From positions 14,504 to 78,503 of IMG/VR virus record IMGVR_UViG_3300031952_000007: 64,000 bases of DNA. One strand, 5' to 3'. The stretch is from a virus (Duplodnaviria; Heunggongvirae; Uroviricota; Caudoviricetes; Crassvirales). Position numbers and translations under genes: made by a program. The notes under the pieces were generated by a model. That model ran no database searches. It saw only the letters and a list, made by a program, of their open reading frames with translations, and was not told where the DNA came from. The stretch's first letter is position 1, and the number at the start of each line of letters is the position of its first letter. This document shows positions 39,309-54,912 of this stretch, one piece after another.

Positions 39309-40409
39309 ATGTCACAATCTTGTTCTAATTGTTTCAATGGATGTGCTGAAATTGTTTCAGATAAATGTGTAAGATATACAGGAATTGATATTCCTTTATT
39401 AGGTATTCAAAGTGGAGATTCTCTTTCATATGTTGAACAGACATTGATAGGATTTTTATCATCTACACTTGATGGAACTGGAATTAAAATCACTCTTCCT
39501 GCAGGAACTTATTGTACTTTAGTTAATACATATCTTCCTACGTGTGGAGATATTACAGTGGTTGATATTCTTACAGCAGTTGTTAAATCTGCATGTGATT
39601 TACAAACACAAGTTGATGCAATTAATGCAACTCTAACAACTCTTAATGCAGATTACACTATTGGATGTTTAACTGGTGTTACAGCTTCCACTGATACACA
39701 TGCAATGTTGCAAGCAGTTATAACAAAACTTTGTGCTGTAGATAGTACATTAACGTTATTAGCAAACAGTCTTCCTATTACATATGTAAAACGTGCTGAT
39801 CTTAATTCTCTCATTGCTGCTTATTTAGCATCACAAGCTCCAGTAATTACACAGCAGTATCAAAAAATGGTTCCTTATACAGTGGTTGAATATTATGGAT
39901 CTTTAACTAATTTTAGTGCTACAACAGGTATAGGTAAACCAGAGTTAGGTTGGGATAAAGTTTATTTATGCAATGGTGCTAATGGCACCCCAGATAAAAG
40001 AGGAAGAGTTGCGGTAGGAGCTATATTAGATGTTCCTGGTGGTCCAGCATTAAATTCTGCAGTGAACCCTTCTTCAAACCCACTTAATAAAAACTATGCT
40101 TTAAATCAAATTTATGGAACTAACTCAGTTGCACTAACCACATTAGAAATACCTTCTCATAATCATAGTGCTCTTTCAGTAGTAAATGAACATGGTGGTC
40201 ATTTCCATAACTTACTTGCAATTACTAGTATTGGAGGATCGGTAAATGGATATGAACATATTAATACTGGAACAGTAACTACTTTACCAACTAGTACAAA
40301 TCTTACAGGTATAACTGTAGATACAACTATTGGACAAACTGGTCAAGGAGTAGAACATACAAATACTCAACCTGTTCTTGCTTGTTATTATATTATGTAC
40401 ATCCCTTAA
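39309..40409 (+). CDS. tail fibre protein with C-terminal phage tail-collar domain
   Basis: C-terminal EIPSHNHS...GGHFHNL...HTNTQPVLACYYIMYIP matches the tail-collar pattern (HxH...NxQP..yyI.y). Confidence 0.6.
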   Translation: MSQSCSNCFNGCAEIVSDKCVRYTGIDIPLLGIQSGDSLSYVEQTLIGFLSSTLDGTGIKITLPAGTYCTLVNTYLPTCGDITVVDILTAVVKSACDLQTQVDAINATLTTLNADYTIGCLTGVTASTDTHAMLQAVITKLCAVDSTLTLLANSLPITYVKRADLNSLIAAYLASQAPVITQQYQKMVPYTVVEYYGSLTNFSATTGIGKPELGWDKVYLCNGANGTPDKRGRVAVGAILDVPGGPALNSAVNPSSNPLNKNYALNQIYGTNSVALTTLEIPSHNHSALSVVNEHGGHFHNLLAITSIGGSVNGYEHINTGTVTTLPTSTNLTGITVDTTIGQTGQGVEHTNTQPVLACYYIMYIP

Positions 40410-40420
40410 TTAATATTTAT

Positions 40421-40705
40421 ATGTCTTGTCTTCCAGGAATGCCTTGTTATACAACAATCACCTATCCATCAACTTGCGGTGTAAATCGTGCGTTTTATGG
40501 ATATCCTATTACATCTGATTTATTATGTTATAGTGGGCCTACATTACCAAATACAGGTATTGCTTCATCAAATAGTATAACTCTATCATTACAAAAAATA
40601 GATGCTAAATTAAGCCCTACAGCATTGCTAGAGGCTATTGTATTAGCATTAGATAATAACCCCACACTCAAAGCAGCTTTATGCAGTGCTTTAAGTGATT
40701 GTTAA
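40421..40705 (+). CDS. hypothetical protein (start re-assigned to ATG at 40421)
   Basis: The listed ORF start overlaps the fibre gene; the internal Met (MSCLPGMPCY...) follows its stop. Confidence 0.4.
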   Translation: MSCLPGMPCYTTITYPSTCGVNRAFYGYPITSDLLCYSGPTLPNTGIASSNSITLSLQKIDAKLSPTALLEAIVLALDNNPTLKAALCSALSDC

Positions 40706-41595
40706 TAATAAAACCAAAACCAATGACCGTATTAATTACATTAACAAGTGCAGGAGCTGATACAGGAAACTTTGATTTATATTCCGATGTAGATGGATAT
40801 ACTACACCATTTGAAACTGGAATTCCTAAATACAATTTAGTAAGTGGATATATAAGTACTATAGTTCCATTAGGAACTACAATTGTAAGAGTTAAATCAA
40901 ATACCACTTACGACTCTACATGTACAAATTATACAAATATTCAAGTTGTATTAACTACTAGTTCATCAACAACTCTTCCTCCTGATCCAGCAACGTCTAC
41001 ATTATCATTTACTTATAGTGCAGGGGTATTTACATTTAGTTTATCTAATGCTATTCCATCGACAGATATTAGAATACTTAGTGCTACAGTAAATGGTAGC
41101 ACTAGTAGTGGTGCATGCGCATCTAATACTTTTATACAAAGTGATACATTAACAGACTTAGTGATTATTGGAGGAACTACCACTAATTCTGCAAGAGGAA
41201 TTTCTCCAATGACTTGTAATGTAACTGATTGGAAAAGAGAAGATGGTATTTTACTTCTTGGACGTGGTACACTTTATAATGGTAATGTTATTACAATAGG
41301 AAGCACCACAGTTACTATATCTATACCTTCAACTTGTGTAAGCTCTTATGTTTGTACTCCTGGTGATGCAATTGTAATATCTGGTGGTGCATTATTGGTA
41401 GATGCTTGCGGTATAGGTGTAGTTATGTTTACTCAATTAGGAGCAGATATTATAACAGGAACTATAATATATACAAATAATACATTAACTACTCCAATCA
41501 CTGGATGGAATTATGTATCAGATAATGCTGGACAAATCTACAATATAGATAGTGTTACAGGAGTTATAGGAATCTACACAGGATCAAATTGTTAA
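40699..41595 (+). CDS. fibre-like protein, paralog A of a three-member family (likely start at Met 40723)
   Basis: N-terminal domain MTVLITLTSAGADTGNFDLYSDVDGYTTPFETGIPKYNLVSGYISTIVPLGTTIVRVKSNTTYDSTC is shared with 50556..51344 and 54043..54912; Ser/Thr-rich linker. Confidence 0.55.
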   Translation: MLIIKPKPMTVLITLTSAGADTGNFDLYSDVDGYTTPFETGIPKYNLVSGYISTIVPLGTTIVRVKSNTTYDSTCTNYTNIQVVLTTSSSTTLPPDPATSTLSFTYSAGVFTFSLSNAIPSTDIRILSATVNGSTSSGACASNTFIQSDTLTDLVIIGGTTTNSARGISPMTCNVTDWKREDGILLLGRGTLYNGNVITIGSTTVTISIPSTCVSSYVCTPGDAIVISGGALLVDACGIGVVMFTQLGADIITGTIIYTNNTLTTPITGWNYVSDNAGQIYNIDSVTGVIGIYTGSNC

Positions 41596-41636
41596 CTTTA
41601 TAAAAAATCCTGTTTTGTTGGTTTTACAGGGTGTGT

Positions 41637-41668
41637 CCCCAAGTATTTCTATACTTGGGGTTTTTTAT
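41637..41668 (+). terminator. rho-independent terminator
   Basis: Stem ccccaagtat / atacttgggg with loop ttct, followed by TTTTTT. Confidence 0.65.
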
Positions 41669-41771
41669 AACCAATCTAGTTAAACTATATAATTAAAAAA
41701 GTTAAATTAATTTGGTAAATATAAAACTAAAGTATTATCTTTACAGCAATTTTAACTAAATCAAGCCAACT

Positions 41772-43007
41772 ATGTCAGAAAATCAATCGTTGTTACAACA
41801 ACTTGAAGTACTATTGGGATGGAAAAAAAGTAAAAGTTTCTACGCTAAGAAACTAGGAATTACAGAATTTGAAGTAGATGATCTTTTAAAAGAATTAAAA
41901 GAATCAAAAGATATTAGAAATGAAGCAGAAGTTGCTACATACATTGGAGAACTAGAACAATGTCTTATTGAAATTAACAATGACAAGGGTACGTTAAAAT
42001 CTACATTAGAATCTACCTTTGAACCTAAGAGTGATATAGAATTAGCTAAGCTACATAAGATTGATTTAAACAAATACAAAATCTCTACTTATTGGAGCAA
42101 GTTAAAATCTAATGGTAAGTTTACATCTTCTGTATTCTGTATGTTAAAGAAACCTACAGATTATACAATGGAAGATTTCTCAAAGTTCTTAAACAGCTAT
42201 GTTCCAAAGACTTTACCCATTGCAAACATTCTAACACATGATGAGAATGAAGAGCTTGTAGATGTTGAAATATCAATCTCTGATTTTCATTTAGCTAAAA
42301 AAACTTTAGAGAAAGAATCAATCTTAGATAAAAAGATACAGTACATTCAAACGATTGATCAATTACTAAGTAGAGTTACAAGAACATTTGATATAAATAA
42401 AATTGTATTTCCAATATCAAATGATTTCTTTCATACAGATAATTACCAAAATCAAACAACAGCAGGTACACCACAAGATGTGTTAATATCTTATGATAAT
42501 GAATATGAAGAAGGGTTTGATCTTTTAGTTGAAGCTATTCGTATTTTGAAATCAGTGTGTAATGTTGTAGAAGTTGTATTAGTTCAAGGTAACCATGATA
42601 GAACTAAATCATTTTATTTAGCACATGCATTAGAAGTGTTCTTCAAGAATGATAAATCAATCATATTTCAAAGAGAACATTCTTCTACAAAAACTGTAGT
42701 GTTGGGAAATACATTTATTGGTTACCATCATGGGAACTGTAAAATAGAAACCCTACCATTATTATTTGCTACAGGAAAAAACAGCATTGATTTTGGTAAT
42801 GCTAAATACAGAGAAATCCATACAGGCGATAAACATCACTACATGGCTAAAGAAATTAAAGGTGTTAGAATTCAACAGATGCCTTCTCTTTCTGGTACAG
42901 ATAGATGGCATGAAGATAATCTTTATGTAAACAATATAAGAGCAGGACTTGCATTAGTTTATCATTATATAGATGGTAAGATTGCAGAGTACGAAAGTCG
43001 CATATGA
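41772..43007 (+). CDS. calcineurin-like metallophosphoesterase
   Basis: SDFH (DxH), LVQGNHDRT (GNHD), GYHHGN (GH) and HTGDKHH motifs in metallophosphatase order. Confidence 0.5.
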   Translation: MSENQSLLQQLEVLLGWKKSKSFYAKKLGITEFEVDDLLKELKESKDIRNEAEVATYIGELEQCLIEINNDKGTLKSTLESTFEPKSDIELAKLHKIDLNKYKISTYWSKLKSNGKFTSSVFCMLKKPTDYTMEDFSKFLNSYVPKTLPIANILTHDENEELVDVEISISDFHLAKKTLEKESILDKKIQYIQTIDQLLSRVTRTFDINKIVFPISNDFFHTDNYQNQTTAGTPQDVLISYDNEYEEGFDLLVEAIRILKSVCNVVEVVLVQGNHDRTKSFYLAHALEVFFKNDKSIIFQREHSSTKTVVLGNTFIGYHHGNCKIETLPLLFATGKNSIDFGNAKYREIHTGDKHHYMAKEIKGVRIQQMPSLSGTDRWHEDNLYVNNIRAGLALVYHYIDGKIAEYESRI

Positions 43008-43636
43008 AAAAATATTACTTATATAGACACATCAGACTTGATAAAAATGAACCTTTTTACATTGGTATAGGTAAAGTTTTAACTGAAGTAAAAGATTATT
43101 CAATAGATTCAGAACATTATAGAAGAGCATATTCTAAAAGAAATAGAAATAAATATTGGAACCATGTAGTAAATTTAACTAAATATTCTATAGAAATTTT
43201 ATTTGAATCGAATAATAAAAATTTAATAATACAAAAAGAAATTGAGTTTATAAAATTATATGGTAGAAAAGATTTAAAGTTAGGAACTTTAGTTAATATG
43301 ACAGACGGTGGAGAAGGAATAGAAGGAAATGTAAGATCAGAAGCTACGAAATTAAAACAATCTATTTCTGCAAAAATTGGTATGGTTGGTAAAAGAAAAG
43401 AAGAATGTATCAAAAGGTTAAGTGATTATCATTCTACAAAAGGAAGATTTGGTAAAGATCATCCTAGAACTTTTATGATTTATCAATATGATTTACAAAA
43501 TAATTTTATAAAAGAATGGGAAAGTTTATCTGATGTAAAAAGAATTTTAAATTATAATATACCTCATATATCTAATTGTATAAACAATAAAAGAAAAACA
43601 GCCTTTGGATTTAAGTGGTATAAAGAAAGAATATAA
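43004..43636 (+). CDS. free-standing GIY-YIG homing endonuclease
   Basis: YYLYRHIRLDKNEPFYIGIG (GIY...YIG), then R..Y and NMTDGGEG motifs, and a C-terminal AFGFKWY DNA-binding-like tail; ATGA overlap with the upstream gene. Confidence 0.75.
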   Translation: MKKYYLYRHIRLDKNEPFYIGIGKVLTEVKDYSIDSEHYRRAYSKRNRNKYWNHVVNLTKYSIEILFESNNKNLIIQKEIEFIKLYGRKDLKLGTLVNMTDGGEGIEGNVRSEATKLKQSISAKIGMVGKRKEECIKRLSDYHSTKGRFGKDHPRTFMIYQYDLQNNFIKEWESLSDVKRILNYNIPHISNCINNKRKTAFGFKWYKERI

Positions 43637-43641
43637 ATAAC

Positions 43642-44358
43642 ATGGCAACATTAAGAAAATTAGTTTCAGACGTTAGATCAATGCACAAGCTATTGTCTAC
43701 AGATAACCTTATCACTGATAGGGTTGTTGCTGCTGAAATTAGAAACAATACATTATTACTAGTTAAGAGAGAAACTAATCTTAGAAAGCTCTGGGCTACT
43801 GATACAGTGTTTACTACTATTCCATGTTTAGAAATGGAAGAGGTAAGTATTTCTGAATGTTGTGATTATGTAGATCCTTGTACTATTGGTAGAACTAAAT
43901 ATAAACTTCCACGCATATGCGAGGGTAACTACCAATATCTTATACAAGGTGTGTATTCAATTAATGCATTGAGTGGAACAGGTAAGAAGTTTAAAGAAAT
44001 TACCATCAATAGATATGTAAATCTTTTAAAACTTCCTGTTATAAAAAATGAGGAATATTATTGGATTCAAAATGGATATTTATATATTAACAATCCATTA
44101 ATACAAGCAATTAGAATATCTGCATTTTTTGAAGAAGATATTCCTAATGAGATTATGTTTCCATCTTGTGGTTGTGGAGGAGTAGAATATACAGATGATG
44201 AGTATTGTAAAAATCCATTAGATAAAAACTATGGTCTTCCTGGATATTTACAAAGTCAAGTTTTAACACTAACTTCTCAAAAATTAATATCTACTTATTT
44301 TAAAATTGATGATGATAAAACTTCCGACAATAAAGATGATCAAGTAAGTAAAGTATAA
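43642..44358 (+). CDS. structural-module hypothetical protein (238 aa)
   Basis: Co-oriented ORF. Confidence 0.5.
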   Translation: MATLRKLVSDVRSMHKLLSTDNLITDRVVAAEIRNNTLLLVKRETNLRKLWATDTVFTTIPCLEMEEVSISECCDYVDPCTIGRTKYKLPRICEGNYQYLIQGVYSINALSGTGKKFKEITINRYVNLLKLPVIKNEEYYWIQNGYLYINNPLIQAIRISAFFEEDIPNEIMFPSCGCGGVEYTDDEYCKNPLDKNYGLPGYLQSQVLTLTSQKLISTYFKIDDDKTSDNKDDQVSKV

Positions 44359-44359
44359 C

Positions 44360-44839
44360 ATGAGTAGGACTAAAATAGACTGGAGAAGTTCCAGCAAAGA
44401 AAACTATATAAACTTTTGCAAAAAGAATCCATCAGTTAAATTAACATTTGATGAGTGGAAAAATATTGTTTATTCTTTTAATGAGTCCTATAAAAATTAT
44501 ATATTAGAAACTGGAGAGAAAGCAAAACTTCCTTTTGGATTTGGAGAATTTTCAATTAATAAAAAGAAGAGAAGAAAGATAAAAGGAATAAATGGTCAAG
44601 AGTTCATAAATCTTCCAATAGATTGGCCAAAGACAAAATTAAAAGGAAAAGTTATTTACAACTTTAACTATCATACAGAAGGATACTTTTTTGGATGGGT
44701 TTGGTTTAAAGATACAGCAAGACTAAAACATTCAGACTTTTGGTACTTCAAACCTACTAGAATAACTTCAAGACTACTAGCACACTACCTCAAAACCAAT
44801 GACAAATATCAACATATTTATCATGAATGGATTAAATAA
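44360..44839 (+). CDS. hypothetical protein (159 aa)
   Basis: Co-oriented ORF. Confidence 0.5.
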   Translation: MSRTKIDWRSSSKENYINFCKKNPSVKLTFDEWKNIVYSFNESYKNYILETGEKAKLPFGFGEFSINKKKRRKIKGINGQEFINLPIDWPKTKLKGKVIYNFNYHTEGYFFGWVWFKDTARLKHSDFWYFKPTRITSRLLAHYLKTNDKYQHIYHEWIK

Positions 44840-44844
44840 TTAAA

Positions 44845-45813
44845 ATGTCATACTACTACAAGTACAATTTTACATCCCCAGAAATAGTTTATTCTACCAT
44901 AAAGGAAGAACTCAAAAGCTATTTTGATACAGGTGCTGTGGATGACTTAATGTTTCCTACTTATACAGATAAGTGTTTAAGGAAGTTAGGTAGAAGTTCT
45001 TATGTTATTACAGAAGCAATTTTACATATTGAAGATTTTCAAGCAAGACTTCCAGACAATTTTTTTGCTGTAAGAGAAGCTTGGCTTTGTGCTGAGATGC
45101 CTCAACATCCTTATCAAACAGCTAATTCATTTTATTCTCAAGCAGCTTCTGAAACAACTATACAAGTTAGTCCTGTAATTTCTGGTGGAGTTCCTTGTAC
45201 AAATGCTGAATGTACAACAGGTTGTCCTTCATGTATGCCTGAATTAATTCAGTCTGTATATAAAACAAATAACTCTGTAGCAAGATCTTATGAAAATTCA
45301 TATCTTCTTAAGCCAGGAAATATATCTGTAAGATCACATTGTGATGTTAACTATAACGATAACTCAGAATTTTATGGATATGATGGAGTAGCTAATGGAT
45401 TATCAAATCCTCGTTCTTCTTCTTACGATAGTTTTGATATTAGAGATAATAAATTTGTTACAAACTTTAGAAGAGGTGTGGTAAGATTAATATTCTATGT
45501 TATAGAATATGATGGAGGTGGTAATCAAATGATTCCTGATAATTATCGTATAAGAGAATTTATTGAAGCATTCATTAAGTTTAAAGTATTTGAAACTTTG
45601 GCTAATCAAGTGAATGATGAAACATTCCAACAATTACAACAGAAGTTAGTTTATTATAAACAGCTATCTGAAGAAGCCTTTATTATGGCTGATATTGAAG
45701 TGAAGAAACAAGATGTCTATACCAAGCAAAGAAGAATTACACAAGACTTGAATAGATTAAACATGTACGAATTACCAAATAGAACTAATAGATATGGCAG
45801 GAGAGGATACTAA
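44845..45813 (+). CDS. structural-module hypothetical protein (322 aa)
   Basis: Co-oriented ORF overlapping the next gene by 20 nt. Confidence 0.5.
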   Translation: MSYYYKYNFTSPEIVYSTIKEELKSYFDTGAVDDLMFPTYTDKCLRKLGRSSYVITEAILHIEDFQARLPDNFFAVREAWLCAEMPQHPYQTANSFYSQAASETTIQVSPVISGGVPCTNAECTTGCPSCMPELIQSVYKTNNSVARSYENSYLLKPGNISVRSHCDVNYNDNSEFYGYDGVANGLSNPRSSSYDSFDIRDNKFVTNFRRGVVRLIFYVIEYDGGGNQMIPDNYRIREFIEAFIKFKVFETLANQVNDETFQQLQQKLVYYKQLSEEAFIMADIEVKKQDVYTKQRRITQDLNRLNMYELPNRTNRYGRRGY

Positions 45814-48800
45814 CCAAGGTGGTAATGTAAAACCAGAATATAATGTTGCACAAGCAGGTTTAAATTTAGATCAATCTATAGCACAGATTCCTAAAGGTAA
45901 ACTCACTTATGCATTAAATGCTGTTTTAGAAAACTTTGACTCAAATTCTATAAGTTATCAGAATGAGCAGGGTAATGAGTTATGCTTACAATTTCCTGTA
46001 GATCATCATTTGATTGGAACACATTTTATTCCTGAAAAAAATAAACATGTATTCTTCTTAACCAACCCCAACACTGGAGCTTCTCAAATTGGGTATATGG
46101 ACAATAATGATTGTGTTTATCGTACTTATATAGAAGCAACATGTCTTAATTTTAATATAGACAATCCAATACATAAAGTTGTACATAAAATTACAAATTG
46201 TACTACAGAGATTTATTGGACAGATGGTTTAAATTCTAGAAGATATTTAGATCTTAATCCTGAAAATCTTCCTCTTGTAGTAAAACCTGGAACAGATGTT
46301 TGTGACAATGAAACAATTAATGTAATTGATTGTAACAAATTAAAAATACAACCTGATTTCCAAATTCCAAGTCTTACTGTTAGTGATATAACAACAGGTG
46401 GGGCACTTAAAGCTGGAACCTATCAATTTGCAATTCAATACTGTGATGCATCTGGAGATGGATATACATCGTATTATTCTGTAACAAATCCTACACCAAT
46501 ATCTGATAAACGTGTAACTACTCTTAATTTTGATTATGAGGTGGGTAAATCTATTGTTGTAAATATTGACAATATTGATATTACAGGATATTTTAGTTAC
46601 TATAACATTGCTGTAATTAAATCAATCAATGCAATTACATCTGTTGAGTTGATTGGTACATTTTCTATTGATAAAAGATTTAAACAAGTCACCTATACAG
46701 GTCAGAATGAAACACAAATCAAACTGACAATCAATGATATATTTGAAAAGTTTCCCTATTATGATGTAGCTAAAGATCTTACATCAGTTCAAGACATTCT
46801 TGTATGGGATAACCTCATCTCTATAGATAGAATTAACTATCAACAAATTGCCAATCAAATTCAACTTCAGTGGCAAACCTATAAAATACCTTCTACAGAA
46901 AATTATTCAGATGAATTAAATGCTACAAATCTAAGAGGTTATCTTAGAGATGAAGTGTATGCATTTGAGATTGTATTTCTATTAAAGAATGGTAAACAAA
47001 CAGATGGTTTTCATATTCCAGGTAGAGAAATCAGTTTACAAGATTTACAATATTCAGATGTTCCTGATACAAATCCAGATTTTATTGGCGTACCAAAATA
47101 TGTGGACACTGTAACAGGAATAGGATATAGTCCTTATTGGAAAATATATAATACAGCTACAGTTATTGGTAATGGTGATGGATATCCTATTAATAATGCT
47201 GTTCCTTATAAATATGGAGATTTTGCATATTGGGAATCTACAGAAGTATATCCTTGTAATACAGATGTATGGGGAGAACTATCGAATACACCAATTAGGC
47301 ATCATAAATTTCCAGATGTATTAGTTAGTCCTATATTTGAAACTCCTACAATACTATATTCAAATAATCAAATTGCACCAGTGATGCAAAATGATGCTGT
47401 ATTTCCTATTGGTGTAAAAATAGATTCTTCAAGAGTTGCACAATTAATAAAAAATTCAAATCTTACAACAGATCAAAAAGATAACATTGCTGCATTTAAA
47501 ATTGTAAGAGGTGATAGAAGTACAAATAAATCAATTGTAGCAAAAGGTATTCTTAGGAATGTTGGTAAATATGAAAAGGAAGGGACAAGTTACTACTACC
47601 CAAATTATCCATATAATGATCTTAAAGCAGATCCCTTTATCTTAAGTAAAAATAATGCATATACAGTTGATACCAATATTGATTCTGTAGACGGTGCTTG
47701 TAGAAAATTTAAGGTAACAGTTTATATATCAGGAACCATAGAATATGTAGATTGTTTTACAAATGTAACAGCAACGTATACAACGACTGCTGGGGTAGAT
47801 CTTAGTTTTTGTGCATTAGGAATTCCTAAAGTTTTAACAGGCAGCGCATTTGTACAATCTTTAACTTATAAAACATACTCATTAACATTAAATGATTTAA
47901 CTCCGTATGTTTTTGTTAAAGTAAAATATGTTGCTCCAGGTGGATGTTTTCCAGGAACAAATGCAAGCTGTAGAAAAGGATATGATCCTGGACCTGTATG
48001 TGCAACTAGTAGCACTCCAAGTAATTATACTTGTTTAACTGGAAATTATGCTACTAGACAAGTATTACTTATAGCAACACCAAGAACACTAACATTTACT
48101 TCTATTATTGTACCAATTTTTGTTAGTGGTAGTACAAATTATGAATTAAAAGAAATAAGTTCTAGTGGATATGATTCTACTTGTATAGCATTACCATTAG
48201 AAGGATTTACAAAAAATAATGGGGCTAATTACAGACAAGTATTTAATTCTCCAGAAACTTCTTTTGGACAACCCTTTTTAGGAGATGTTATTAAATTAGA
48301 AAGTGCAATATTTGGTGCAGGAAAAGCACATTTTACACAAGTAAAGAAAAATGCTTTTTATAAATTATTATCCAAAGAGGCACAACAAGATGCATTTAAA
48401 TCTAGTTCTGATTTAGGAAGTATCACTGCTCCTTATAATGCAGCAGCAATGATGGCAGCTTACCAAGCATATTTAACTATTTATGTGAACGGTATTACAA
48501 GAAGAAACTATGCTTATTCATTTAATTCTATAGCTAGTTATGATTATGCTTCTAGTATAGATAACAATATTCAAAAGAAACAAAGAAGTCTTGATATTGC
48601 ACAATATCTTATTCCTGGAGTACAGTCAGTAGGAGAATCTGAAGGAATAAATGTAAATAACTATCAAAGAGAATCTTCTGTTTATTTAAAGACAAAAGAA
48701 AGTTACACACCTCTTCCCTTTCCTAATGAAACTCCAAGTCTTACTCCTGGAGGAACTAGTATTATTTCTGATACTTCAAGATTTTTAATATCTGAAAATT

Positions 48801-50551
48801 TAAATTGTAATAATCCTGGACAAAATAGAAATATAAGTGTTGTTTCATATTATGCATCATTAAAAAATACATTTGTTAATCAATGGGGACAAATATATTC
48901 ATATGATACGATTGATACAGGATTTCAAAGAAATATTGAACAAGCAAATTTATCAAACAATCAACTTTCTTCAGTAGCAACAGTTTTTGGTGGAGATACA
49001 TTTATATCAAGATTTGCATTTAAAACAAAACTTCCTTTCTTTATAGACAATCGTGTGGGTGCTCCAGATGATTCTGATATATTTTATGATGAAATTGGTA
49101 ATGTTGCCTATCCACGATATTGGCATTCATCAAGATCTATATTAAGTAATGCTACTGCTCAATCAAAGACTCTTATAAATTTTATATCATTCAAAGCTCA
49201 TAATTTTGATTGTCCAAATAGTCAAGGAACATCTTCAAATAATCCTGGAAGAACTTTTTATGATGGTAAATTTTATTTATTTGCATATGGAATTCCTTCA
49301 TTTTATTGTGAGTCTTCTATAAATACAGATCTTAGACAAGCATTTAATAATAAAGAAGGAGATTTTTGGCCTCACGTGAGCACAGGTATTCCTGATGATT
49401 GGTTTCAAGAAAGTTATGTTTCAATAGCATTTGATAATACTTATCATTACAATGTAAGTTTCTCTAAACAAAATAGAGAAAACTTTTTTACTCATCTTCC
49501 TGTAGATTGGCAAGCACAACTTTGTTTTACAAACTTTCCATTTAGAGCAATTTATTCTGATGCTCAACAAAGTTTTAGTGATAATAGAATTAACAGTTGG
49601 TTGATCTATCGTCCAATATCCAATTTTGATTTTCCTCAAAATTATGGTAAGTTGGTGTCATTAGATGGTATTCAGAATAAGGCCATTCTAGCCAGATTTG
49701 AGAACAAATCTTTGTTATACAATACAATGCTCACTATTAATACAAGTAACCCACAAGCGGCTTATTTGGGCAATAGCACACTGTTTAAATCAGCACCTCC
49801 AATTGATTTTGCTGAAACAGATCTTGGTTATGTAGGAAGTCAAAATAAGTTCTTATTAAAAATACCTCAAGGACAAATCACTGTAGATGCTAAGAGAGGA
49901 CAAGTATTTTTAATATCTGGAGGTCAAGCACAAGATCTTTCTGCTTTTGGATCTGGAATGAACAGATTCTTTACAGATCATTTAGCATTTGAAATTCTTA
50001 GATACTTTTCAAATGTTGACATAGATAATCATTTTAGTGGTGTGGGACTGCATGGTGTATATGATTCTAAATTTGATAGGGTGATTATAACAAAACTTGA
50101 TTATATTCCACTTTTTGATAATATTAAATATGAAGAATCAACCAGAGAGTTTTATTATATTGACACACTTGGTATAAGAAGAAATATCTTACTTACAGAT
50201 CCTGAATTTTTCTGTAGTAAATCATGGACTCTTTCTTATAATGTAAATACACAAAGCTGGACAAGTTTTCATAGTTATATTCCTAATTTTTATATTGCTG
50301 AAAACAATTTCTTTTACTCAGGATTAAATGATGGATGTGATTTTGATGCAGCAATTGCAGCTTATTTAATTCCTACACCATCAACATCAAGTACATCAAC
50401 AACTATACGTCCACCAGATCCTACAACTACTAGTACAACAACTACGTTATATTGTGATTTTACAGTGGTTACATTAGCACTTGGATGTGAATTAGATGGG
50501 GAAGCTACAGAAAAATATTGTCAAATAATAGGAACAGCAACTGAACAATAA
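45794..50551 (+). CDS. very large virion/tail protein (1585 aa)
   Basis: Uninterrupted 4.76-kb ORF ending in a Ser/Thr-rich linker (PTPSTSSTSTTIRPPDPTTTSTTTTLY) of the kind seen in the fibre proteins. Confidence 0.6.
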   Translation: MAGEDTNQGGNVKPEYNVAQAGLNLDQSIAQIPKGKLTYALNAVLENFDSNSISYQNEQGNELCLQFPVDHHLIGTHFIPEKNKHVFFLTNPNTGASQIGYMDNNDCVYRTYIEATCLNFNIDNPIHKVVHKITNCTTEIYWTDGLNSRRYLDLNPENLPLVVKPGTDVCDNETINVIDCNKLKIQPDFQIPSLTVSDITTGGALKAGTYQFAIQYCDASGDGYTSYYSVTNPTPISDKRVTTLNFDYEVGKSIVVNIDNIDITGYFSYYNIAVIKSINAITSVELIGTFSIDKRFKQVTYTGQNETQIKLTINDIFEKFPYYDVAKDLTSVQDILVWDNLISIDRINYQQIANQIQLQWQTYKIPSTENYSDELNATNLRGYLRDEVYAFEIVFLLKNGKQTDGFHIPGREISLQDLQYSDVPDTNPDFIGVPKYVDTVTGIGYSPYWKIYNTATVIGNGDGYPINNAVPYKYGDFAYWESTEVYPCNTDVWGELSNTPIRHHKFPDVLVSPIFETPTILYSNNQIAPVMQNDAVFPIGVKIDSSRVAQLIKNSNLTTDQKDNIAAFKIVRGDRSTNKSIVAKGILRNVGKYEKEGTSYYYPNYPYNDLKADPFILSKNNAYTVDTNIDSVDGACRKFKVTVYISGTIEYVDCFTNVTATYTTTAGVDLSFCALGIPKVLTGSAFVQSLTYKTYSLTLNDLTPYVFVKVKYVAPGGCFPGTNASCRKGYDPGPVCATSSTPSNYTCLTGNYATRQVLLIATPRTLTFTSIIVPIFVSGSTNYELKEISSSGYDSTCIALPLEGFTKNNGANYRQVFNSPETSFGQPFLGDVIKLESAIFGAGKAHFTQVKKNAFYKLLSKEAQQDAFKSSSDLGSITAPYNAAAMMAAYQAYLTIYVNGITRRNYAYSFNSIASYDYASSIDNNIQKKQRSLDIAQYLIPGVQSVGESEGINVNNYQRESSVYLKTKESYTPLPFPNETPSLTPGGTSIISDTSRFLISENLNCNNPGQNRNISVVSYYASLKNTFVNQWGQIYSYDTIDTGFQRNIEQANLSNNQLSSVATVFGGDTFISRFAFKTKLPFFIDNRVGAPDDSDIFYDEIGNVAYPRYWHSSRSILSNATAQSKTLINFISFKAHNFDCPNSQGTSSNNPGRTFYDGKFYLFAYGIPSFYCESSINTDLRQAFNNKEGDFWPHVSTGIPDDWFQESYVSIAFDNTYHYNVSFSKQNRENFFTHLPVDWQAQLCFTNFPFRAIYSDAQQSFSDNRINSWLIYRPISNFDFPQNYGKLVSLDGIQNKAILARFENKSLLYNTMLTINTSNPQAAYLGNSTLFKSAPPIDFAETDLGYVGSQNKFLLKIPQGQITVDAKRGQVFLISGGQAQDLSAFGSGMNRFFTDHLAFEILRYFSNVDIDNHFSGVGLHGVYDSKFDRVIITKLDYIPLFDNIKYEESTREFYYIDTLGIRRNILLTDPEFFCSKSWTLSYNVNTQSWTSFHSYIPNFYIAENNFFYSGLNDGCDFDAAIAAYLIPTPSTSSTSTTIRPPDPTTTSTTTTLYCDFTVVTLALGCELDGEATEKYCQIIGTATEQ

Positions 50552-50555
50552 TATC

Positions 50556-51344
50556 ATGGCAAAAACAGTAAAAATAACAACATCATCAGTGGGGGCAGAT
50601 TCTGGTCCTTATAATTTATTTTCAGATGCAACAGGATTTACATCAGCATTTGAAACTAATATTTCTAAGGCTGCATTAATAGCAGGATTTGTATCATACA
50701 ATGTTCCAGATGCTACAACAATAATTCGTGTGCGTTCTCTTGCTCCATGTAATAATTATGTTGATTCAACAGTTCCAGTTGTATTAGCTGGAACATGGTA
50801 TAGTATGCAAGAACAACCTGGATTTGCAATTACATATACATCAGGTACATGTGGTGGTGAATACAGACCTTCTATAACACTTACTATTAATAGTATTGCT
50901 ATAAATCAAGTAGAAAAAATAATAGGAGCTCCTTATACCAAAACATTTACTCATGATTCAATGAATATTATTCCTGCAGATAATACAGTACCTCTAACTT
51001 GTTTATTAGGTGCTCCCACAGGATATACATATACAGATTTTGTAGATCTTTTAAATGAAGCTTTTACAGATCTTGGACTTACACAATATAAGGCACAAGT
51101 ATCATTAATAGATAAACCAGGACCATTTACCATCACTCCAATTGAACCTGCTTACGGATTTTATATAGTAAGACCTAGAACAGATGTTTTTAGTATTAAG
51201 ACCACTACAAATGGAGGAATAGCAAACTTAATATATACTAATAATTATTTAACAAAGTGGGATGGTACTGTAAACCCTTATAAAGGAATAACAGAATCAG
51301 GAATCACTATTGTTGGAGGAGTTGTAATAGAACCTACACCATAA
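50556..51344 (+). CDS. fibre-like protein, paralog B
   Basis: N-terminus VKITTSSVGADSGPYNLFSDATGFTSAFETNISKAALIAGFVSYNVPDATTIIRVRSLAPCNNY matches paralogs A and C. Confidence 0.55.
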   Translation: MAKTVKITTSSVGADSGPYNLFSDATGFTSAFETNISKAALIAGFVSYNVPDATTIIRVRSLAPCNNYVDSTVPVVLAGTWYSMQEQPGFAITYTSGTCGGEYRPSITLTINSIAINQVEKIIGAPYTKTFTHDSMNIIPADNTVPLTCLLGAPTGYTYTDFVDLLNEAFTDLGLTQYKAQVSLIDKPGPFTITPIEPAYGFYIVRPRTDVFSIKTTTNGGIANLIYTNNYLTKWDGTVNPYKGITESGITIVGGVVIEPTP

Positions 51345-51664
51345 TGGAATATGAACAAATAGTTTGGAAGAGAAGAATAAGAAATAAAAGAGGTTCATTA
51401 AAATCTTTTGAAGATCTTCCTATAAAAGCACAAGAAGATTTTAAAAGTATTAAAAAGTTTTTAGAAATAAGTTTTAATAAACCTGTACAAGCATATGTTT
51501 TTGGAAGTTATTTACATGGTTTTTGGGATGAATTTTCTGATTACGATGTTATAATAAATGAAATGTGTGGAAGAAGAAAACTAGATGAATTAATTTTAGA
51601 AAGATTAAATTTAAAAGTAAATATACTTTGTGTAGAAGAAGTAGGTAAAATATCAATCCCTTAA
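51344..51664 (+). CDS. minimal nucleotidyltransferase (Pol-beta-like fold) domain protein (106 aa)
   Basis: VFGSYLHGFWDEFSDYDVII fits the hG[GS]x9-13DhDh nucleotidyltransferase signature; TAATG-coupled to paralog B. Confidence 0.45.
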   Translation: MEYEQIVWKRRIRNKRGSLKSFEDLPIKAQEDFKSIKKFLEISFNKPVQAYVFGSYLHGFWDEFSDYDVIINEMCGRRKLDELILERLNLKVNILCVEEVGKISIP

Positions 51665-51673
51665 AATAAAAAT

Positions 51674-54028
51674 ATGGCAGCAACATTAGCAAGTGTAACA
51701 ACAGGACTCATCACCCCAATTGATGCAACATTAACAGGTAATTTATTTTCAGTCACGTGCGAAGGTGCTGTAACAAACATTGGTGGATCTGCTGTTACAG
51801 AACGTGGTGTATGTTATGGAACTATAGCAAATCCTACTATTACAAATAGTAAAGTTGCAACAGGATCTGGAATAGGATCTTTTAGCACTACAATAACATC
51901 ATTGGCTCCAAATGTAATATATTATATTAGAGCATATGCCACTAATAGTTTTGGAACTTTTTATGGAATTGGTAAAACTTATAAAAGAGTAGTCACTGCT
52001 CCAAAAGTTACTACTCCTACATTAATTAATTTTTCAAAAACTGGTGATTTAATATCTGTAACAATTAATAACACTATCACCAATGATGGTGGTAGCACAT
52101 TATTAACAAAAGGAATATGTTGGGCAACAACCCTTAGTCCAACTATTGCTAATAATAATTTACCAAGCACTGGAAATTCTAATACTTTTATTTTTGAATT
52201 ACAAAATTTACTTCCAAATACAAATTATTATATTAGGACATACGCTTCTAACTTTTTTGGAATAACTTATAGCACTGCATTTATTTATAAAAATACAGTG
52301 GAACTCCCACAAATAAATACTTCTAAAACATATAGTTATAGAAATATTGAGTGCACTGGAGTATTTTCAATTCCTGGAGGATTACAAATTATACAAAAAG
52401 GATTTGTTATATCAACACTTAAATCTCCAACATTTGCTACAGCACTAAGCACAACTGTAAATGGTCCTGGAACTTCTGATTTTACTTCAACTATTTCTGC
52501 ACTTACTCCAAACACTACATATTATATAAGACCATACTTTACTACTGTTTTAGGAACAAGTTATGGTACAGGAATTGCAACTAAAACAAAAACATTAGCT
52601 GCTCCTACACTATCTCCTATTACAATTACTCCAATACATAATGTTGGAATTAATAATCAAATAGAACATTTTGAAGTGAGTGCCACTATTACTAGTAATG
52701 GAGGTGCTCCTATTTACGAAGCTGGTATTATATGGGCTCCTGAGTGGATGCCAAATCAAGGTAGTCCAGGTCAATTTATTACACTAACATCTGATGTTCC
52801 TGTGGGAGTAACCACTGACCAAGATTCACCAGGATTATTAAATGGAACTGTTGTCACTGGAAAAATTGCTGCAACAAAAGCATTTACCAATTGGTATAAT
52901 GAAAATGTTTCAGATGAAGGATATACTAATCCAGTTATTCCAGGAGTTTTTAATGAACTAGATGATAATGAAGGAAGTATTTATGCAAAAGTTTATGCAA
53001 AAAATTATGTTGGTGTAGGATATAGTTCAGAAACATATTGGCAAAGAACTCCTTTAGCATATAAAATAGGTATACAACCTGCAACAAGTTTTGTTACAGT
53101 GGTAAATTCTACTAACTGTACTGTTAAAACTAAAATGAAATATCATAGCTCACATACAATTTTAAATAAAGGAGTTTGTTGGAGTCTTAATTATAATCCT
53201 ACAACTAGTGATTCTTATACAAATGTAAGAACTAAACCAACTATAACTACATCTCCTACTGCAGGAGGTTGGAGTTTTGCAGAAGATACATATAACATCA
53301 CTGGAATAATTGAAGGACTCAATTATTATGTTAGATCTTATGTTGTAGATCAATTTGGAATTAGTTATGGCACAACATGTTCTGGTTTTAATACCAGTGT
53401 TTCAACATTGCAAGAAGTTACAATAGGGACTATGAAATGGGCAGATAAAGATCTTGATGTATCTACTTATAAAAATGGAAACATTATTCCTCAAGTGCAA
53501 GATGAAGATGCGTTTAAATATATTCAATATGGAGCTTGGTGTTATGTTAATAACGACCCTCTTTTAGGAAAACTTTATAATGGATATGCAATAACTGATT
53601 CTAGGGGATTGGCTCCTACAGGCTGGAGAATTCCTACAGATGCTGATTGGACAAAATTAGGAACAGCATTAGGAGGCAACGCAGTTGCTGGAGGTAAAAT
53701 GAAACATACTGGAACTAGAATAGTTAATGGTAAATCTGGTAATGTTTCTACTTATTGGCTTAGTCCTAATACTGGTGCTACAAATAGTTCTGGTCTTGGT
53801 GTAAGAGGTTTACCAAAACCAGGAAGAGGACCAGAGTTTTGGAAAGAGTTATATTATACAAATACATACAAAAATTATGCATCTTCCACTAAGTCTACAA
53901 AAACAATTATGGTGGAGATAACTAGGACTTCTTATTTATGGAGTAGATCTTTAGCTTATAATAGTGCAGCACTAACTGTTTCTGACATCCAATTTAATTG
54001 TGGATTTTCAGTAAGATGTATTAAATAA
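51674..54028 (+). CDS. tail/receptor-binding protein with repeated ~90-aa domains and a C-terminal FISUMP-like domain
   Basis: At least four repeats of the pattern G.CW...P.......G.G.F...I..L.PNT.YYIR.Y..N..G..YG. C-terminal region ...YNGYAITDSRGLAPTGWRIPTDADWTKLGTALGGNAVAGGKMK resembles the Fibrobacter succinogenes major paralogous domain consensus. Confidence 0.55.
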   Translation: MAATLASVTTGLITPIDATLTGNLFSVTCEGAVTNIGGSAVTERGVCYGTIANPTITNSKVATGSGIGSFSTTITSLAPNVIYYIRAYATNSFGTFYGIGKTYKRVVTAPKVTTPTLINFSKTGDLISVTINNTITNDGGSTLLTKGICWATTLSPTIANNNLPSTGNSNTFIFELQNLLPNTNYYIRTYASNFFGITYSTAFIYKNTVELPQINTSKTYSYRNIECTGVFSIPGGLQIIQKGFVISTLKSPTFATALSTTVNGPGTSDFTSTISALTPNTTYYIRPYFTTVLGTSYGTGIATKTKTLAAPTLSPITITPIHNVGINNQIEHFEVSATITSNGGAPIYEAGIIWAPEWMPNQGSPGQFITLTSDVPVGVTTDQDSPGLLNGTVVTGKIAATKAFTNWYNENVSDEGYTNPVIPGVFNELDDNEGSIYAKVYAKNYVGVGYSSETYWQRTPLAYKIGIQPATSFVTVVNSTNCTVKTKMKYHSSHTILNKGVCWSLNYNPTTSDSYTNVRTKPTITTSPTAGGWSFAEDTYNITGIIEGLNYYVRSYVVDQFGISYGTTCSGFNTSVSTLQEVTIGTMKWADKDLDVSTYKNGNIIPQVQDEDAFKYIQYGAWCYVNNDPLLGKLYNGYAITDSRGLAPTGWRIPTDADWTKLGTALGGNAVAGGKMKHTGTRIVNGKSGNVSTYWLSPNTGATNSSGLGVRGLPKPGRGPEFWKELYYTNTYKNYASSTKSTKTIMVEITRTSYLWSRSLAYNSAALTVSDIQFNCGFSVRCIK

Positions 54029-54042
54029 TAAATTCAACAAGA

Positions 54043-54912
54043 ATGTCAAAAGCAATAGTAATAAAATTAACAAAGATTGGTAGTAGGGTTACAGGACCAT
54101 TTGTTATAAAAGATAATTTTGAAACTGTCTTGGGAACTAATGTTTCCAAGGCAGCTCTTGTTTCTGGAACATCATATATAGTTAATGATGCTGCTACATC
54201 TATTATTATTGAATCGAAAGGTAGATGTAATGTTATAAAAACAATTCTTATTACAGAAATTACTATAGAACAACTAGCAGCAACTACTCTTCAATATTCT
54301 GATACATCTTCTCTATGGAGACATTTAACAAATATACAATTATATAATAATTATTATGGAACTACAGAACCATACGTAATTGAATATCCATTCTCTTATC
54401 AATTCCAAGATGAGATTTTACAAAATGTAAAAGACTATACAAAAGCATTTAAATATCTTTCTATACCAGATGGTGTATTTAATTATAACACTAGAATAGA
54501 AACAGACGATGTGTGGTTTAATAAAGCTATTGTATATAATGGACAACAAAACTCTGGTCTTCTAGAACTGGTTCCAAAGCCTCTTAATAACTTAAGAGAC
54601 TATATGAAATATCCAATATATAATGTTGACAGTAAAACCATTACCTTTACAAAATCTGATAACTTCTATCAATACAATACATTCTGGAGCTTGTTAAAAA
54701 ATAAACAACAAGTGATGTTTAATACATCATGTGAAAGTCTTTCTATTGATAGAGTGTTAAATCAATCTAATATGGATTATGGAAAGAGATCTTTCAAGAA
54801 AGAACCTCTGAGGGCTAAAGATTTAAAAGTGAGACATATATTAGATAATAGAAGCGATAGTCACTTAGTAAGTCAATTTATTTTAACACCTGCTCAAATA
54901 TCTTATAAATAA
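54043..54912 (+). CDS. fibre-like protein, paralog C
   Basis: N-terminus IVIKLTKIGSRVTGPFVIKDNFETVLGTNVSKAALVSGTSYIVNDAATSIIIESKGRCN matches paralogs A and B. Confidence 0.55.
   Translation: MSKAIVIKLTKIGSRVTGPFVIKDNFETVLGTNVSKAALVSGTSYIVNDAATSIIIESKGRCNVIKTILITEITIEQLAATTLQYSDTSSLWRHLTNIQLYNNYYGTTEPYVIEYPFSYQFQDEILQNVKDYTKAFKYLSIPDGVFNYNTRIETDDVWFNKAIVYNGQQNSGLLELVPKPLNNLRDYMKYPIYNVDSKTITFTKSDNFYQYNTFWSLLKNKQQVMFNTSCESLSIDRVLNQSNMDYGKRSFKKEPLRAKDLKVRHILDNRSDSHLVSQFILTPAQISYK

Follow-up and report, generated by a model that had tools for sequence, protein, structure and literature searches.

A conserved N-terminal domain of about 72 aa (N-dom), carried by three proteins encoded in a 64-kb stretch of crAss-like phage DNA (hereafter, the window), is on balance best explained as a tail-tip docking module belonging to one clade of crAss-like phages. 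Two of the N-dom genes (A and B) bear hypervariable knobs and the third (C) bears the C-terminal domain that has become detached from the muzzle protein, and the N-dom therefore probably serves to clip parts onto the tail tip. The window features involved are as follows.

39309..40409, + strand: tail-fiber-like protein, 366 aa, immediately upstream of the slot-1 cluster
40421..40705, + strand: Cys-rich protein g107b, 94 aa, a bare anchor in the window
40723..41595, + strand: gene A, 290 aa, accessory A/B-type N-dom protein in slot 1
45794..50551, + strand: muzzle core protein, 1585 aa (Pfam crAss_MUZ, E 9e-38)
50327..50551, + strand: C-terminal tail of the muzzle ORF, specific to the clade (aa 1512-1585)
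50486..50539, + strand: two CxLxGxA repeats in the muzzle tail, GCELDGEA (C1565-A1571) and YCQIIGTA (C1576-A1582)
50556..51344, + strand: gene B, 262 aa, slot-2 accessory N-dom protein of the A/B type, separated from the muzzle stop by 4 nt
51344..54028, + strand: island between B and C, two ORFs
51344..51664, + strand: nucleotidyltransferase-like ORF of the island, 106 aa
51674..54028, + strand: g784 of the island, 784 aa, Fn3-like repeats and a C-terminal Fib_succ_major domain
54043..54912, + strand: gene C, 289 aa, core gene

Homology and distribution of the N-dom

The initial annotation of the window reported N-terminal similarity among three predicted products (40699..41595, 50556..51344, and 54043..54912) followed by complete divergence, and both observations hold. 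All three ORFs are present on the + strand and, with composition adjustment on, BLASTP aligns A and B over 78 aa (46% identity, E 1e-15) and B and C over 67 aa (39% identity, E 6e-8), the pairwise comparison of A and C falling below significance. An HMM built solely from A/B-type sequences of other genomes, excluding window sequence and C-type members, detects the C of the window among 451 six-frame ORFs (E 1.2e-10), HHalign comparison of the A/B-type and C-type profiles yields a probability of 98.9% (E 1.7e-17), and a six-frame HMM scan of the 64 kb returns exactly three N-dom copies, those of A, B, and C. Beyond approximately residue 80, pairwise BLASTP detects no mutual similarity among the distal parts. 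AlphaFold2 predicts the N-dom of B as a small beta-sandwich (pLDDT 81.6) of the Ig/Fn3 type, with the same order of strands and helices in the model of C, which is confident for residues 1-80. The genome is AT-rich (31% GC) and the N-dom proteins are rich in Thr, Ser, and Ile, which could favor a compositional or chance origin of the shared pattern, but the composition-adjusted BLASTP values, the independent profile, the HHalign probability, the common predicted fold of B and C, and the restriction of six-frame matches to three copies rule out this origin, the probability of which is negligible. The consensus pattern originally proposed matches A and B, but C represents a divergent subfamily with approximately 31% identity to A/B-type domains.

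No relative of the N-dom was found in Pfam, PHROG, or the PDB; the domain lies outside the known Ig, Fn3, BACON, and PKD sequence families (no Pfam match at E<=0.1), and it bears no likeness in sequence or fold to known anchor, fiber, or spike families, such as those of T7 gp17 or crAss001 gp22. It is represented by at least 1772 cluster representatives and by 494 stretches in IMG/VR, and all of the occurrences found belong to a single large clade of environmental crAss-like phages. It was not found in 185,579 bacterial and archaeal species genomes, and tblastn of A and B against 50,697 phage records returned no match. Among phages with unsplit muzzles, it was found neither in the 18.6-kb muzzle neighborhoods of the Leptolyngbya phage Lbo-JY46 and the Flavobacterium phage FpV4, nor in a six-frame profile scan of the 49-kb structural region of crAss001, which contains gp21 and gp29. 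In all of the best 150 of the 1772 cluster representatives the N-dom occupies residues 1-75, and it is strongly conserved beside hypervariable partners. This combination is what marks an anchor as opposed to a distal binding domain, and argues against the notion that the N-dom is a generic spacer of Ig-like fold, or a weak binder of carbohydrates, with no part in docking, with A and B either anchored by other means or freed at lysis as soluble, non-virion decoys or receptor blockers. The proteins begin straight with the first beta-strand, with no evident signal peptide by sequence inspection, and this feature, together with the absence of the N-dom from bacterial and archaeal genomes, makes such a spacer role unlikely; it would also leave unexplained the co-occurrence of A/B-type genes with a muzzle-tail motif described below.

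Accessory N-dom proteins and their knobs

A/B-type genes are accessory, with 0-3 copies per relative located at two fixed slots, both in a tail context: slot 1 follows a PHROG tail-fiber gene and slot 2 lies directly after the muzzle. Their products range from 74 to 584 aa and comprise the N-dom, usually a Thr-rich linker, and a hypervariable Cys-rich knob. Across 95 unique relatives, mean identity in the N-dom is 63%, whereas only 3.5% of distal-domain pairs are alignable, and DNA conservation drops to zero precisely over the distal parts, ending at the domain boundary. A run rich in Thr, Ser, Pro, and Gly directly follows the N-dom in 124 of the 150 listed cluster representatives, with small Cys-rich knobs next, and no Pfam family, fiber-type or other, recurs in these proteins, an organization for which the earlier label of "fiber-like" proteins is inappropriate. 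A/B-type proteins have knob types in common with the hypervariable tail at the C-terminus of the muzzle ORF: of 233 distal regions of A/B-type proteins, 33 match muzzle tails at E<=1e-6, with up to 78% identity. The N-dom harbors a single, invariant Cys, which is also kept in the C-type domain, and the total number of Cys is odd in 62 of 90 A/B-type proteins. The outer tail proteins here are rich in Cys, whereas two large downstream ORFs have no Cys at all. The idea of an attachment module fused to unrelated distal domains thus fits A and B, given their conserved N-dom, divergent distal parts, tail contexts, and knobs in common with the muzzle tail, but does not extend to C.

In slot 1, gene A almost certainly starts at ATG 40723 and not at TTG 40699, because the latter overlaps the upstream stop and all homologues start with MTVLITLT. 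The gene encodes an N-dom (approximately 40726-40956), a short Ser/Thr/Pro linker, and a 210-aa Cys-rich distal region, with 7 Cys overall. The relatives of this distal region are found only among the slot-1 proteins of three related loci (L028, L094, and L100), and there is no DNA conservation over 41000-41600. The product of 39309..40409, upstream of the cluster, matches a PHROG tail protein (phrog_8763, E 1.9e-11) and a tail fiber protein (phrog_8469, E 1e-9). In relatives, the same N-terminal region of g107b (approximately 105 aa) bears a poly-Thr linker and knobs, reaching up to 488 aa, and g107b is therefore a third scaffold for the same knob pool. In slot 2, gene B carries its N-dom at 50556-50789, has no Thr linker, and ends in a 185-aa orphan distal domain that matches only itself among 5.8 billion proteins, a search yielding no functional hint. 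Comparison with the first 163 related loci revealed no counterpart of the island that follows, and a domain of the same type as the Fib_succ_major domain of g784 is found on the muzzle tail of one relative (L148). The claim that each N-dom gene adjoins a large structural gene is accurate for B, which comes immediately after the muzzle ORF of 1585 aa, and for C, which precedes an 881-aa ORF, but not for A, which lies between the 94-aa gene and a 411-aa exonuclease-like gene.

Organization of the muzzle gene

The muzzle protein of crAss001, gp44, comprises PF25731 (crAss_MUZ) and PF25729 (crAss_MUZ_C) domains (Bayfield et al., 2023; PMC10172136). The window ORF at 45794-50551 likewise matches crAss_MUZ and is found in the same gene order (ring 2, ring 1, muzzle), but it is devoid of the usual C-terminal domain, which is supplied by C. 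In gene C, a divergent N-dom (54043-54264) precedes a homologue of the muzzle C-terminal domain (aa 81-289, approximately 54283-54909). Residues 89-289 of C match residues 1766-1961 of the FpV4 muzzle (BLASTP E 3e-15; HMM E 2e-16) and residues 81-276 match residues 1453-1641 of the Lbo-JY46 muzzle (E 2e-22), and in both proteins the matching segments start, collinearly, right where the alignment with the window muzzle ends. The FpV4 segment in turn matches PF25729 (E 2.7e-10, 41 bits against a cut-off of 27), gp44 also matches crAss_MUZ_C, and the best match of an enlarged C profile in the crAss001 region is gp44 1249-1284 (E 0.006 in a small database). C, whether by itself or appended to the window muzzle, has no Pfam match even at E<=10, C has no sequence match in the PDB, and its AlphaFold2 model has a pLDDT below 50 for residues 87-289. 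On the strength of these alignments, residues 81-289 of C are identified as the conserved C-terminal domain of the muzzle, which in this clade has been separated from the core ORF by a split of the muzzle gene, and one N-dom protein is therefore, by homology, a muzzle component. The 2727 homologues of C are constant in length (288-289 aa), as befits a core gene, and its interpretation as a third receptor-binding paralog was consequently rejected.

The clade-specific tail of the core ORF consists of a conserved N.GCD..A motif, a Thr/Ser/Pro linker, and short Cys-containing repeats of the "DCxLxGTA" type. In relatives, this tail is hypervariable, knob-bearing, and 24-806 aa long, minimal tails consisting of a tether and one motif and nothing else. 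Muzzle tails contain CxLxGxA at 16 times the density seen in compositionally similar A/B distal parts, and the motif lies at a median of approximately 25 aa into the tail as extracted, that is, from 15 aa past the conserved core. Among 68 unique complete genomes, 63 have both an A/B-type gene and the motif, four have neither, and one is discordant (Fisher 6e-6, in a test that ignores phylogeny and a sample in part chosen for having an A/B-type gene). In two lineages without either, the tails keep Cys-containing segments of 79 and 159 aa, and the joint loss does not therefore reflect a general loss of distal tail sequence.

These data also bear on the proposal that the A/B-type N-dom docks on the N-dom of C, or on another A/B-type N-dom, with six per hexameric muzzle and the repeats serving some other end, such as the disulfide stapling of the six tails. 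C is always present, its related N-dom has the same invariant Cys, beta-sandwich domains often pair edge-to-edge, and the number of repeats tracks A/B copy number weakly (rho 0.33), all of which would suit such pairing. Four lineages, however, keep C and its N-dom while having neither A/B-type genes nor repeats, a joint loss that fits the repeats, and not C, as the specific partner of A/B-type proteins, and the C-type and A/B-type domains constitute distinct subfamilies (31% identity). Pairing between N-doms is thus considered rather improbable.

Discussion

The small size, accessory nature, and variability of A/B-type proteins invite comparison with capsid decoration proteins. The head fibers of crAss001 (gp21 and gp29) are similarly small, consisting of an anchor of 38-58 aa at the N-terminus and an Ig-like knob at the C-terminus (PMC10172136), and the major capsid protein of the clade is unusually conserved (94-99%) and could offer a constant binding site. 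Under such a scenario, A and B would be head fibers, akin to T4 Hoc, with their N-dom inserted in hexon pockets, and the fold would have been reused independently in C. Yet only one N-dom protein, C, has a partner domain that could be identified, and by homology that domain belongs to the muzzle. Both slots are situated among tail genes and not near the capsid genes, A/B-type proteins and the muzzle tail exchange knobs, the presence of A/B-type genes goes together with that of a muzzle-tail motif, and the N-dom profile has no match in the crAss001 region encoding gp21 and gp29, making a location on the capsid a poor prospect.

In the tail-tip docking model, the ancestral muzzle gene has split, leaving a core ORF that ends in a free hypervariable tail of Thr-rich tethers, "DCxLxGTA" repeats, and variable knobs, and a C-terminal domain made as the separate core protein C, with a divergent N-dom at its front. 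In A and B, the N-dom, usually with a Thr-rich tether, would display one or more small Cys-rich knobs, and the knobs of A/B-type proteins, the muzzle tail, and g107b are drawn from one shuffled pool. The A/B-type N-dom may bind the CxLxGTA peptides of the muzzle tail as putative docking peptides, possibly locked by a disulfide through its single invariant Cys, a type of bond that, between subunits, stabilizes the tails of crAss001 (PMC10172136). In C, the N-dom would fasten the detached domain to the muzzle core, with the conserved N.GCD..A motif as a possible site, and the knobs would function at the tail tip as interchangeable heads for adhesion or receptor binding. A more specific and frankly tentative version of the model casts the N-dom and the "DCxLxGTA" repeats as a plug and socket, possibly disulfide-locked, that would load interchangeable adhesin heads onto tail-tip tethers, as a counterpart of cohesin-dockerin pairs, the same module having allowed the muzzle to split and freed the core C-terminus as a scaffold.

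With respect to gp44, the homology of the C-terminal domain of C is established through FpV4 and Lbo-JY46, but the muzzle here occupies two genes, the core ORF having gained a tail of tethers, repeats, and knobs, and the C-terminal domain an N-terminal beta-sandwich. Neither the split nor these additions are present in the cultured relatives examined (crAss001, FpV4, and Lbo-JY46), and no description of them was found in the literature searched. A conserved N-terminal part that fixes a variable appendage at a defined virion site, as proposed here, is known for the head fibers of crAss001 and for its tail fiber gp22, residues 1-26 of which are held in the THA2-THB hub (PMC10172136). The N-dom has no sequence similarity to these anchors and is a folded 72-aa domain instead of a short peptide; its proposed socket is a muzzle-tail repeat and not a collar around the barrel, and no homologues of a THA2-THB-type hub were identified here. 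The tail fibers and spikes of podoviruses, such as the T7 gp17 N-domain and the dual-spike systems of K1-5/SP6, G7C, and KP32, also join a conserved N-terminal adaptor to exchangeable receptor-binding domains, with several paralogues encoded per genome, a mosaic of distal parts, and exchange of cassettes at the boundary between domains. Those proteins, however, are trimeric fibers or beta-helix spikes with recognizable enzyme or fiber folds, whereas the present ones are small knobs on tethers, probably monomeric, in which no Pfam family recurs and the anchor family is new. In lactococcal siphophages, carbohydrate-binding modules decorate several structural proteins ("evolved" Dit, BppA, and the neck passage structure), in the same manner as one pool of small modules, with a putative binding role, is found here on the muzzle tail, g107b, and the N-dom proteins; phage group, folds, and scaffolds all differ. 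The parallel with the cohesin-dockerin scaffoldins of cellulosomes is one of analogy only, in that a beta-sandwich would bind a short repeated peptide on a tethered scaffold, so that variable heads could be loaded in different combinations; homology is lacking, and the polarity is reversed, since here the cargo would carry the sandwich and the scaffold the peptide.

Environmental viromes contain the clade in great abundance, as evidenced by the 2727 C homologues and by the 494 N-dom stretches in IMG/VR; no member has been cultured, however, and its A, B, and C-type genes all lacked an annotation. If correct, the docking model would name the host-interaction genes of this clade and would imply that the crassvirus muzzle, so far viewed as a single giant conserved protein, can split and become a scaffold. 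A conserved N-dom, a variable head, and two slots would constitute a simple genetic rule with which to predict or engineer host-binding repertoires. The pairing of a compact 72-aa domain with an 8-aa peptide would be a candidate protein-assembly tool.

A conserved N-terminal domain in three genes of the tail region

Three genes of the window share an N-terminal domain of about 72 aa (the N-domain) and are unrelated to each other past approximately residue 80:

40723-41595, plus strand, gene A
50556-51344, plus strand, gene B
54043-54912, plus strand, gene C

In this domain, A and B are 46% identical over 78 aa (E 1e-15), and B and C are 39% identical over 67 aa (E 6e-8). Pairwise comparison of A with C gave no significant similarity; a profile built solely from A/B-type domains of other genomes matches C of the window (E 1.2e-10), and the profiles of the two subfamilies, A/B-type and C-type, align with an HHalign probability of 98.9%. 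AlphaFold2 predicts a six-strand, one-helix beta-sandwich in B (pLDDT 81.6) and the same fold in residues 1-80 of C, and the six-frame translation of the window contains exactly three copies of the domain. The shared N-terminal domain described in the initial annotation is hence borne out. For gene A, the start is moved to ATG 40723, because the TTG at 40699 originally proposed lies over the stop codon of the preceding gene and every homologue begins MTVLITLT.

Neither Pfam nor PHROGs returned a match for A, B, or C, and matches to the N-domain in a viral structure library were limited to uncharacterised proteins from Virus NIOZ-UU157, a metagenomic virus and more distant carrier with five N-domain-like proteins, one of them 287 aa long. 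The N-domain nonetheless defines a large family, with 1772 cluster representatives in an exhaustive HMMER search (E<=0.001); among the best 150 of these, it starts within the first two residues in all but four, where it starts at residues 5-24. Putative tandem domains in four representatives were rejected, the second stretches being insignificant. IMG/VR contains 494 N-domain stretches, and the best 80 loci all belong to one clade and present the same gene order as the window. A profile search of genome contigs did not find the domain in 185,579 bacterial and archaeal species (one genome each), which therefore provide no prophage or host clue, and tblastn searches with A and B yielded no match in 50,697 deposited phage genomes.

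Genomic context

The window (31% GC) carries the structural module of a crAss-like phage on its plus strand, at about 25-63 kb. Near 24 kb the sign of the GC skew flips and so does the coding strand, with genes to the left lying on the minus strand. Besides A, B, and C, the module comprises:

27112-29151, plus strand, terminase (PHROG E 1e-85)
after the terminase, plus strand, P22-like portal
31739-32269, plus strand, SPFH/Band 7 domain protein (E 1e-22), directly 3' of the portal gene
33664-35217, plus strand, Crass_capsid major capsid protein
after the major capsid protein, plus strand, ring protein 3/4, then a block of small structural genes
39309-40409, plus strand, PHROG tail-fibre-like protein of 366 aa, in that block
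40421-40705, plus strand, g107b, a small Cys-rich gene encoding a bare 94-aa anchor
41772-43007, plus strand, metallophosphatase/exonuclease-like gene, 411 aa (phrog_704, E 9e-50), 3' of A
43004-43636, plus strand, NUMOD1 homing-endonuclease-like ORF, between the exonuclease-like gene and ring 2
between the NUMOD1 ORF and the muzzle gene, plus strand, ring 2, an IHF-like gene and ring 1, in that order
45794-50551, plus strand, muzzle (tail-tip) protein, 1585 aa (Pfam crAss_MUZ E 9e-38)
3' of the muzzle gene, plus strand, B, a nucleotidyltransferase-like ORF, a 784-aa Fn3/Fib_succ_major protein and C, in that order
within 51344-54028, plus strand, the nucleotidyltransferase-like ORF, 106 aa (NTP_transf_2, E 1e-5)
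within 51344-54028, plus strand, the 784-aa protein, which has a Fib_succ_major domain (E 8e-28) at its C-terminus besides about six Fn3-like repeats
3' of C, plus strand, three ORFs of 861-932 aa (881, 932, and 861 aa)

The order is that of crAss001 (rings gp34/35, ring 2 gp40, ring 1 gp43, muzzle gp44). HHalign comparison of the window gene families with crAss001 proteins matched only g159 with gp42 and g412 with gp31, and gave nothing significant against gp36 (AUX), gp38 (THA), gp39 (THB), gp22, or gp45. By muzzle sequence, the nearest cultured phages are all distant, namely Leptolyngbya phage Lbo-JY46 (36%), Cellulophaga phages phi17:2 and phi4:1 (29.5%), Flavobacterium phage FpV4, and an epsilon crAss-like phage.

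In the related IMG/VR loci L002-L080, the major capsid protein is conserved at 94-99% identity, which is unusually strong for one gene, the neighboring portal, ring, muzzle, and tail genes being just 50-85% identical. The SPFH/Band 7 gene is present in some relatives only. The exonuclease-like gene is conserved within the tail gene cluster, occurs in relatives as two very different alleles (~60% or ~31% identity), and has at its 5' end the most widely DNA-conserved stretch of the neighborhood (41600-41800, 200 nt). The NUMOD1 ORF has zero DNA coverage in almost all relatives, being present only in L001 and L031, and its position is comparable to those of the crAss001 homing endonucleases gp37 and gp41. 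The ORFs 3' of C, of which those of 932 and 861 aa lie at 57568-63039, correspond in position to the cargo or virion RNA polymerase genes of crAss001; the DxDGD-type RNA polymerase motif is absent from the 881-, 932-, and 861-aa ORFs, for which PDB sequence searches gave nothing useful and no homology was found. Relatives have a single ORF of up to ~1800 aa in which the 881- and 932-aa ORFs are joined.

Gene C and the split muzzle

Homologues of C number 2727, nearly all of 288-289 aa and 65-71% identical, and their position is constant, 3' of the muzzle gene or of the slot-2 gene (the place B occupies here) and 5' of the next large ORF. The C-type gene is a core gene, and its N-domain forms a separate subfamily, 31% identical to the A/B-type. 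When C was searched against phage genomes with tblastn, the matching part was limited to residues 81-289 and fell inside the 3' end of the Lbo-JY46 and FpV4 muzzle ORFs. The two window proteins are collinear with these fused muzzles: residues 33-1511 of the window muzzle correspond to 24-1455 of Lbo-JY46 and C 81-276 to 1453-1641, while window muzzle 1473-1509 corresponds to 1724-1760 of FpV4 and C 89-289 to 1766-1961. The muzzle gene is therefore split in this clade, C being its detached, conserved end. Compared with its fused counterparts, the split muzzle has gained two pieces, namely the final 74 residues of the muzzle ORF in the window and the N-domain of C. The Pfam family PF25729 (Crassvirus muzzle protein C-terminal domain) matches the FpV4 segment and crAss001 gp44 above threshold; C itself does not match the family in a direct search, so its membership is by this transitive link. 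A PDB sequence search with the C family gave nothing useful, and AlphaFold2 modelling of the whole C protein left its muzzle-C-terminal part unfolded, which precluded placing that part in the crAss001 muzzle structure.

Genes A and B and their two slots

A/B-type proteins consist of the N-domain, a Thr/Ser/Pro/Gly-rich run directly after it (124 of the best 150 of the 1772 representatives), and one or several small Cys-rich domains (knobs). Grouping 145 of their distal parts by similarity gave 81 groups with no links between them and no recurrent Pfam family, and a search of 5.8 billion proteins with the distal domain of B returned B only. Among 95 unique proteins from related loci, the N-domain has a mean identity of 63%, whereas only 3.5% of distal pairs are alignable. 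At the DNA level, A has coverage from relatives over its N-domain and none over its distal part; coverage is also zero between 50350 and 54000. For A and B, the proposal of one attachment module shared by proteins with differing distal domains is supported. That of three fibre-like receptor-binding paralogues is not: C is the detached conserved end of the muzzle, and none of the three looks like a fibre. The most fibre-like gene of the region is that of the 784-aa protein, which is devoid of the N-domain and lies in an island (51344-54028) that has no counterpart in the first 163 related loci compared.

A/B-type genes sit in two fixed slots, one 3' of the tail-fibre-like gene and the small g107b (slot 1), the other directly 3' of the muzzle gene (slot 2). 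Both slots can be seen in 68 unique genomes, where the numbers of copies (slot 1, slot 2) were (1,0) in 44, (0,1) in 11, (1,1) in six including the window, (1,2) in one, (2,0) in one, and (0,0) in five. N-domain identity is 59% between slots versus 60-63% within them, so that the slots do not define distinct lineages. A and B are therefore accessory genes, mobile between slots, with a single anchor type.

Complete ORFs of 74-87 aa encoding a bare N-domain with no distal part occur in five loci (L104, L123, L136, L039, and L088), and Virus NIOZ-UU157 likewise has two such proteins of 77 aa; these could be docking-site caps or decayed genes. In a more divergent relative (L164, 1633-3377), slot 1 contains a bare N-domain of 77 aa, another small protein resembling g107b and, ahead of the exonuclease-like gene, two unannotated ORFs (303 and 281 aa) that might, for example, act on the Thr-rich tethers as modifiers.

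Muzzle tails and a shared pool of knobs

In all relatives the muzzle core ends in a conserved ...NFFYSG.N.GCD..A motif, past which the tail is hypervariable (24-806 aa) and made up of poly-Thr tethers, short repeats with the consensus D-C-x-L-x-G-T-A, and Cys-rich knobs; some tails consist of a tether and one repeat, and nothing else. Total muzzle length among relatives is 1525-2229 aa. Muzzle tails and A/B-type proteins draw on a common knob pool, 33 of 233 distal regions having a match among just 74 tails (E<=1e-6; up to 78% identity). A third scaffold follows the same design, since the g107b family in relatives carries poly-Thr and knobs and reaches 488 aa. One relative also carries on its muzzle tail the Fib_succ_major domain seen in the 784-aa protein. 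Elsewhere in the muzzle gene, the segment 47700-48200 has DNA similarity to no relative and probably represents a variable insertion within the distal 'crass' domain.

The CxLxGxA motif is concentrated in muzzle tails, at 10.8 per 1000 aa versus 0.67 in A/B-type distal parts of similar composition (16x), and its first copy lies a median of ~25 aa into the extracted tail, which begins 15 aa past the conserved core. The window has two repeats on its muzzle tail (GCELDGEA and YCQIIGTA) and two A/B-type genes. Of the 68 unique complete genomes, 63 have the repeat together with an A/B-type gene and four have neither (Fisher 6e-6, in a test that ignores phylogeny and on a sample partly retrieved through the A/B-type domain); the one discordant genome shows one motif match but no A/B-type gene, and the reverse case does not occur. 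In two of the four lineages lacking both, the tail retains longer segments with cysteines (79 and 159 aa), and the joint absence is hence not a general loss of the distal tail. Repeat number tracks A/B copy number weakly (rho 0.33).

A proposed tail-tip anchor with exchangeable heads

These observations point to the N-domain as the part that would fix the A, B, and C proteins to the tail tip. In C, it would tie the detached C-terminal domain to the muzzle core; in A/B-type proteins, it may dock on CxLxGTA peptides in the muzzle tail, perhaps locked by a disulfide. The N-domain has one invariant Cys, and the total number of cysteines is odd in 62 of 90 A/B-type proteins, as expected if knob cysteines pair internally and leave that of the N-domain over. 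In crAss001, the tail barrel and fibre hubs are stabilised by inter-subunit disulfides (PMC10172136). The outer tail proteins of the window are Cys-rich (25 in the muzzle, 11 in the tail-fibre-like protein, 7-8 in the rings); the 932- and 861-aa ORFs 3' of C have none.

The N-domain proteins might alternatively decorate the capsid, act as passive Ig-like spacers or be non-virion proteins, or the A/B-type N-domains might pair with the N-domain of C. Each of these three explanations leaves at least one observation unaccounted for among the identity of C as a muzzle component, the tail gene context, and the joint loss of repeats and A/B-type genes. We lean slightly toward the tail-tip anchor as a whole, and regard the specific docking on repeats as a tentative and rather doubtful component of it.

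Phage tail fibres are well known to combine a conserved anchor and exchangeable heads. Pfam, PHROGs, the PDB, deposited phage genomes, and the literature searched did not turn up the anchor family, the split muzzle and its scaffold-like tail, the knob pool spanning three scaffolds, or the co-occurrence of repeat and N-domain. The phage clade concerned is very abundant and uncultured, and in it the knobs would serve as exchangeable adhesin or receptor-binding heads.
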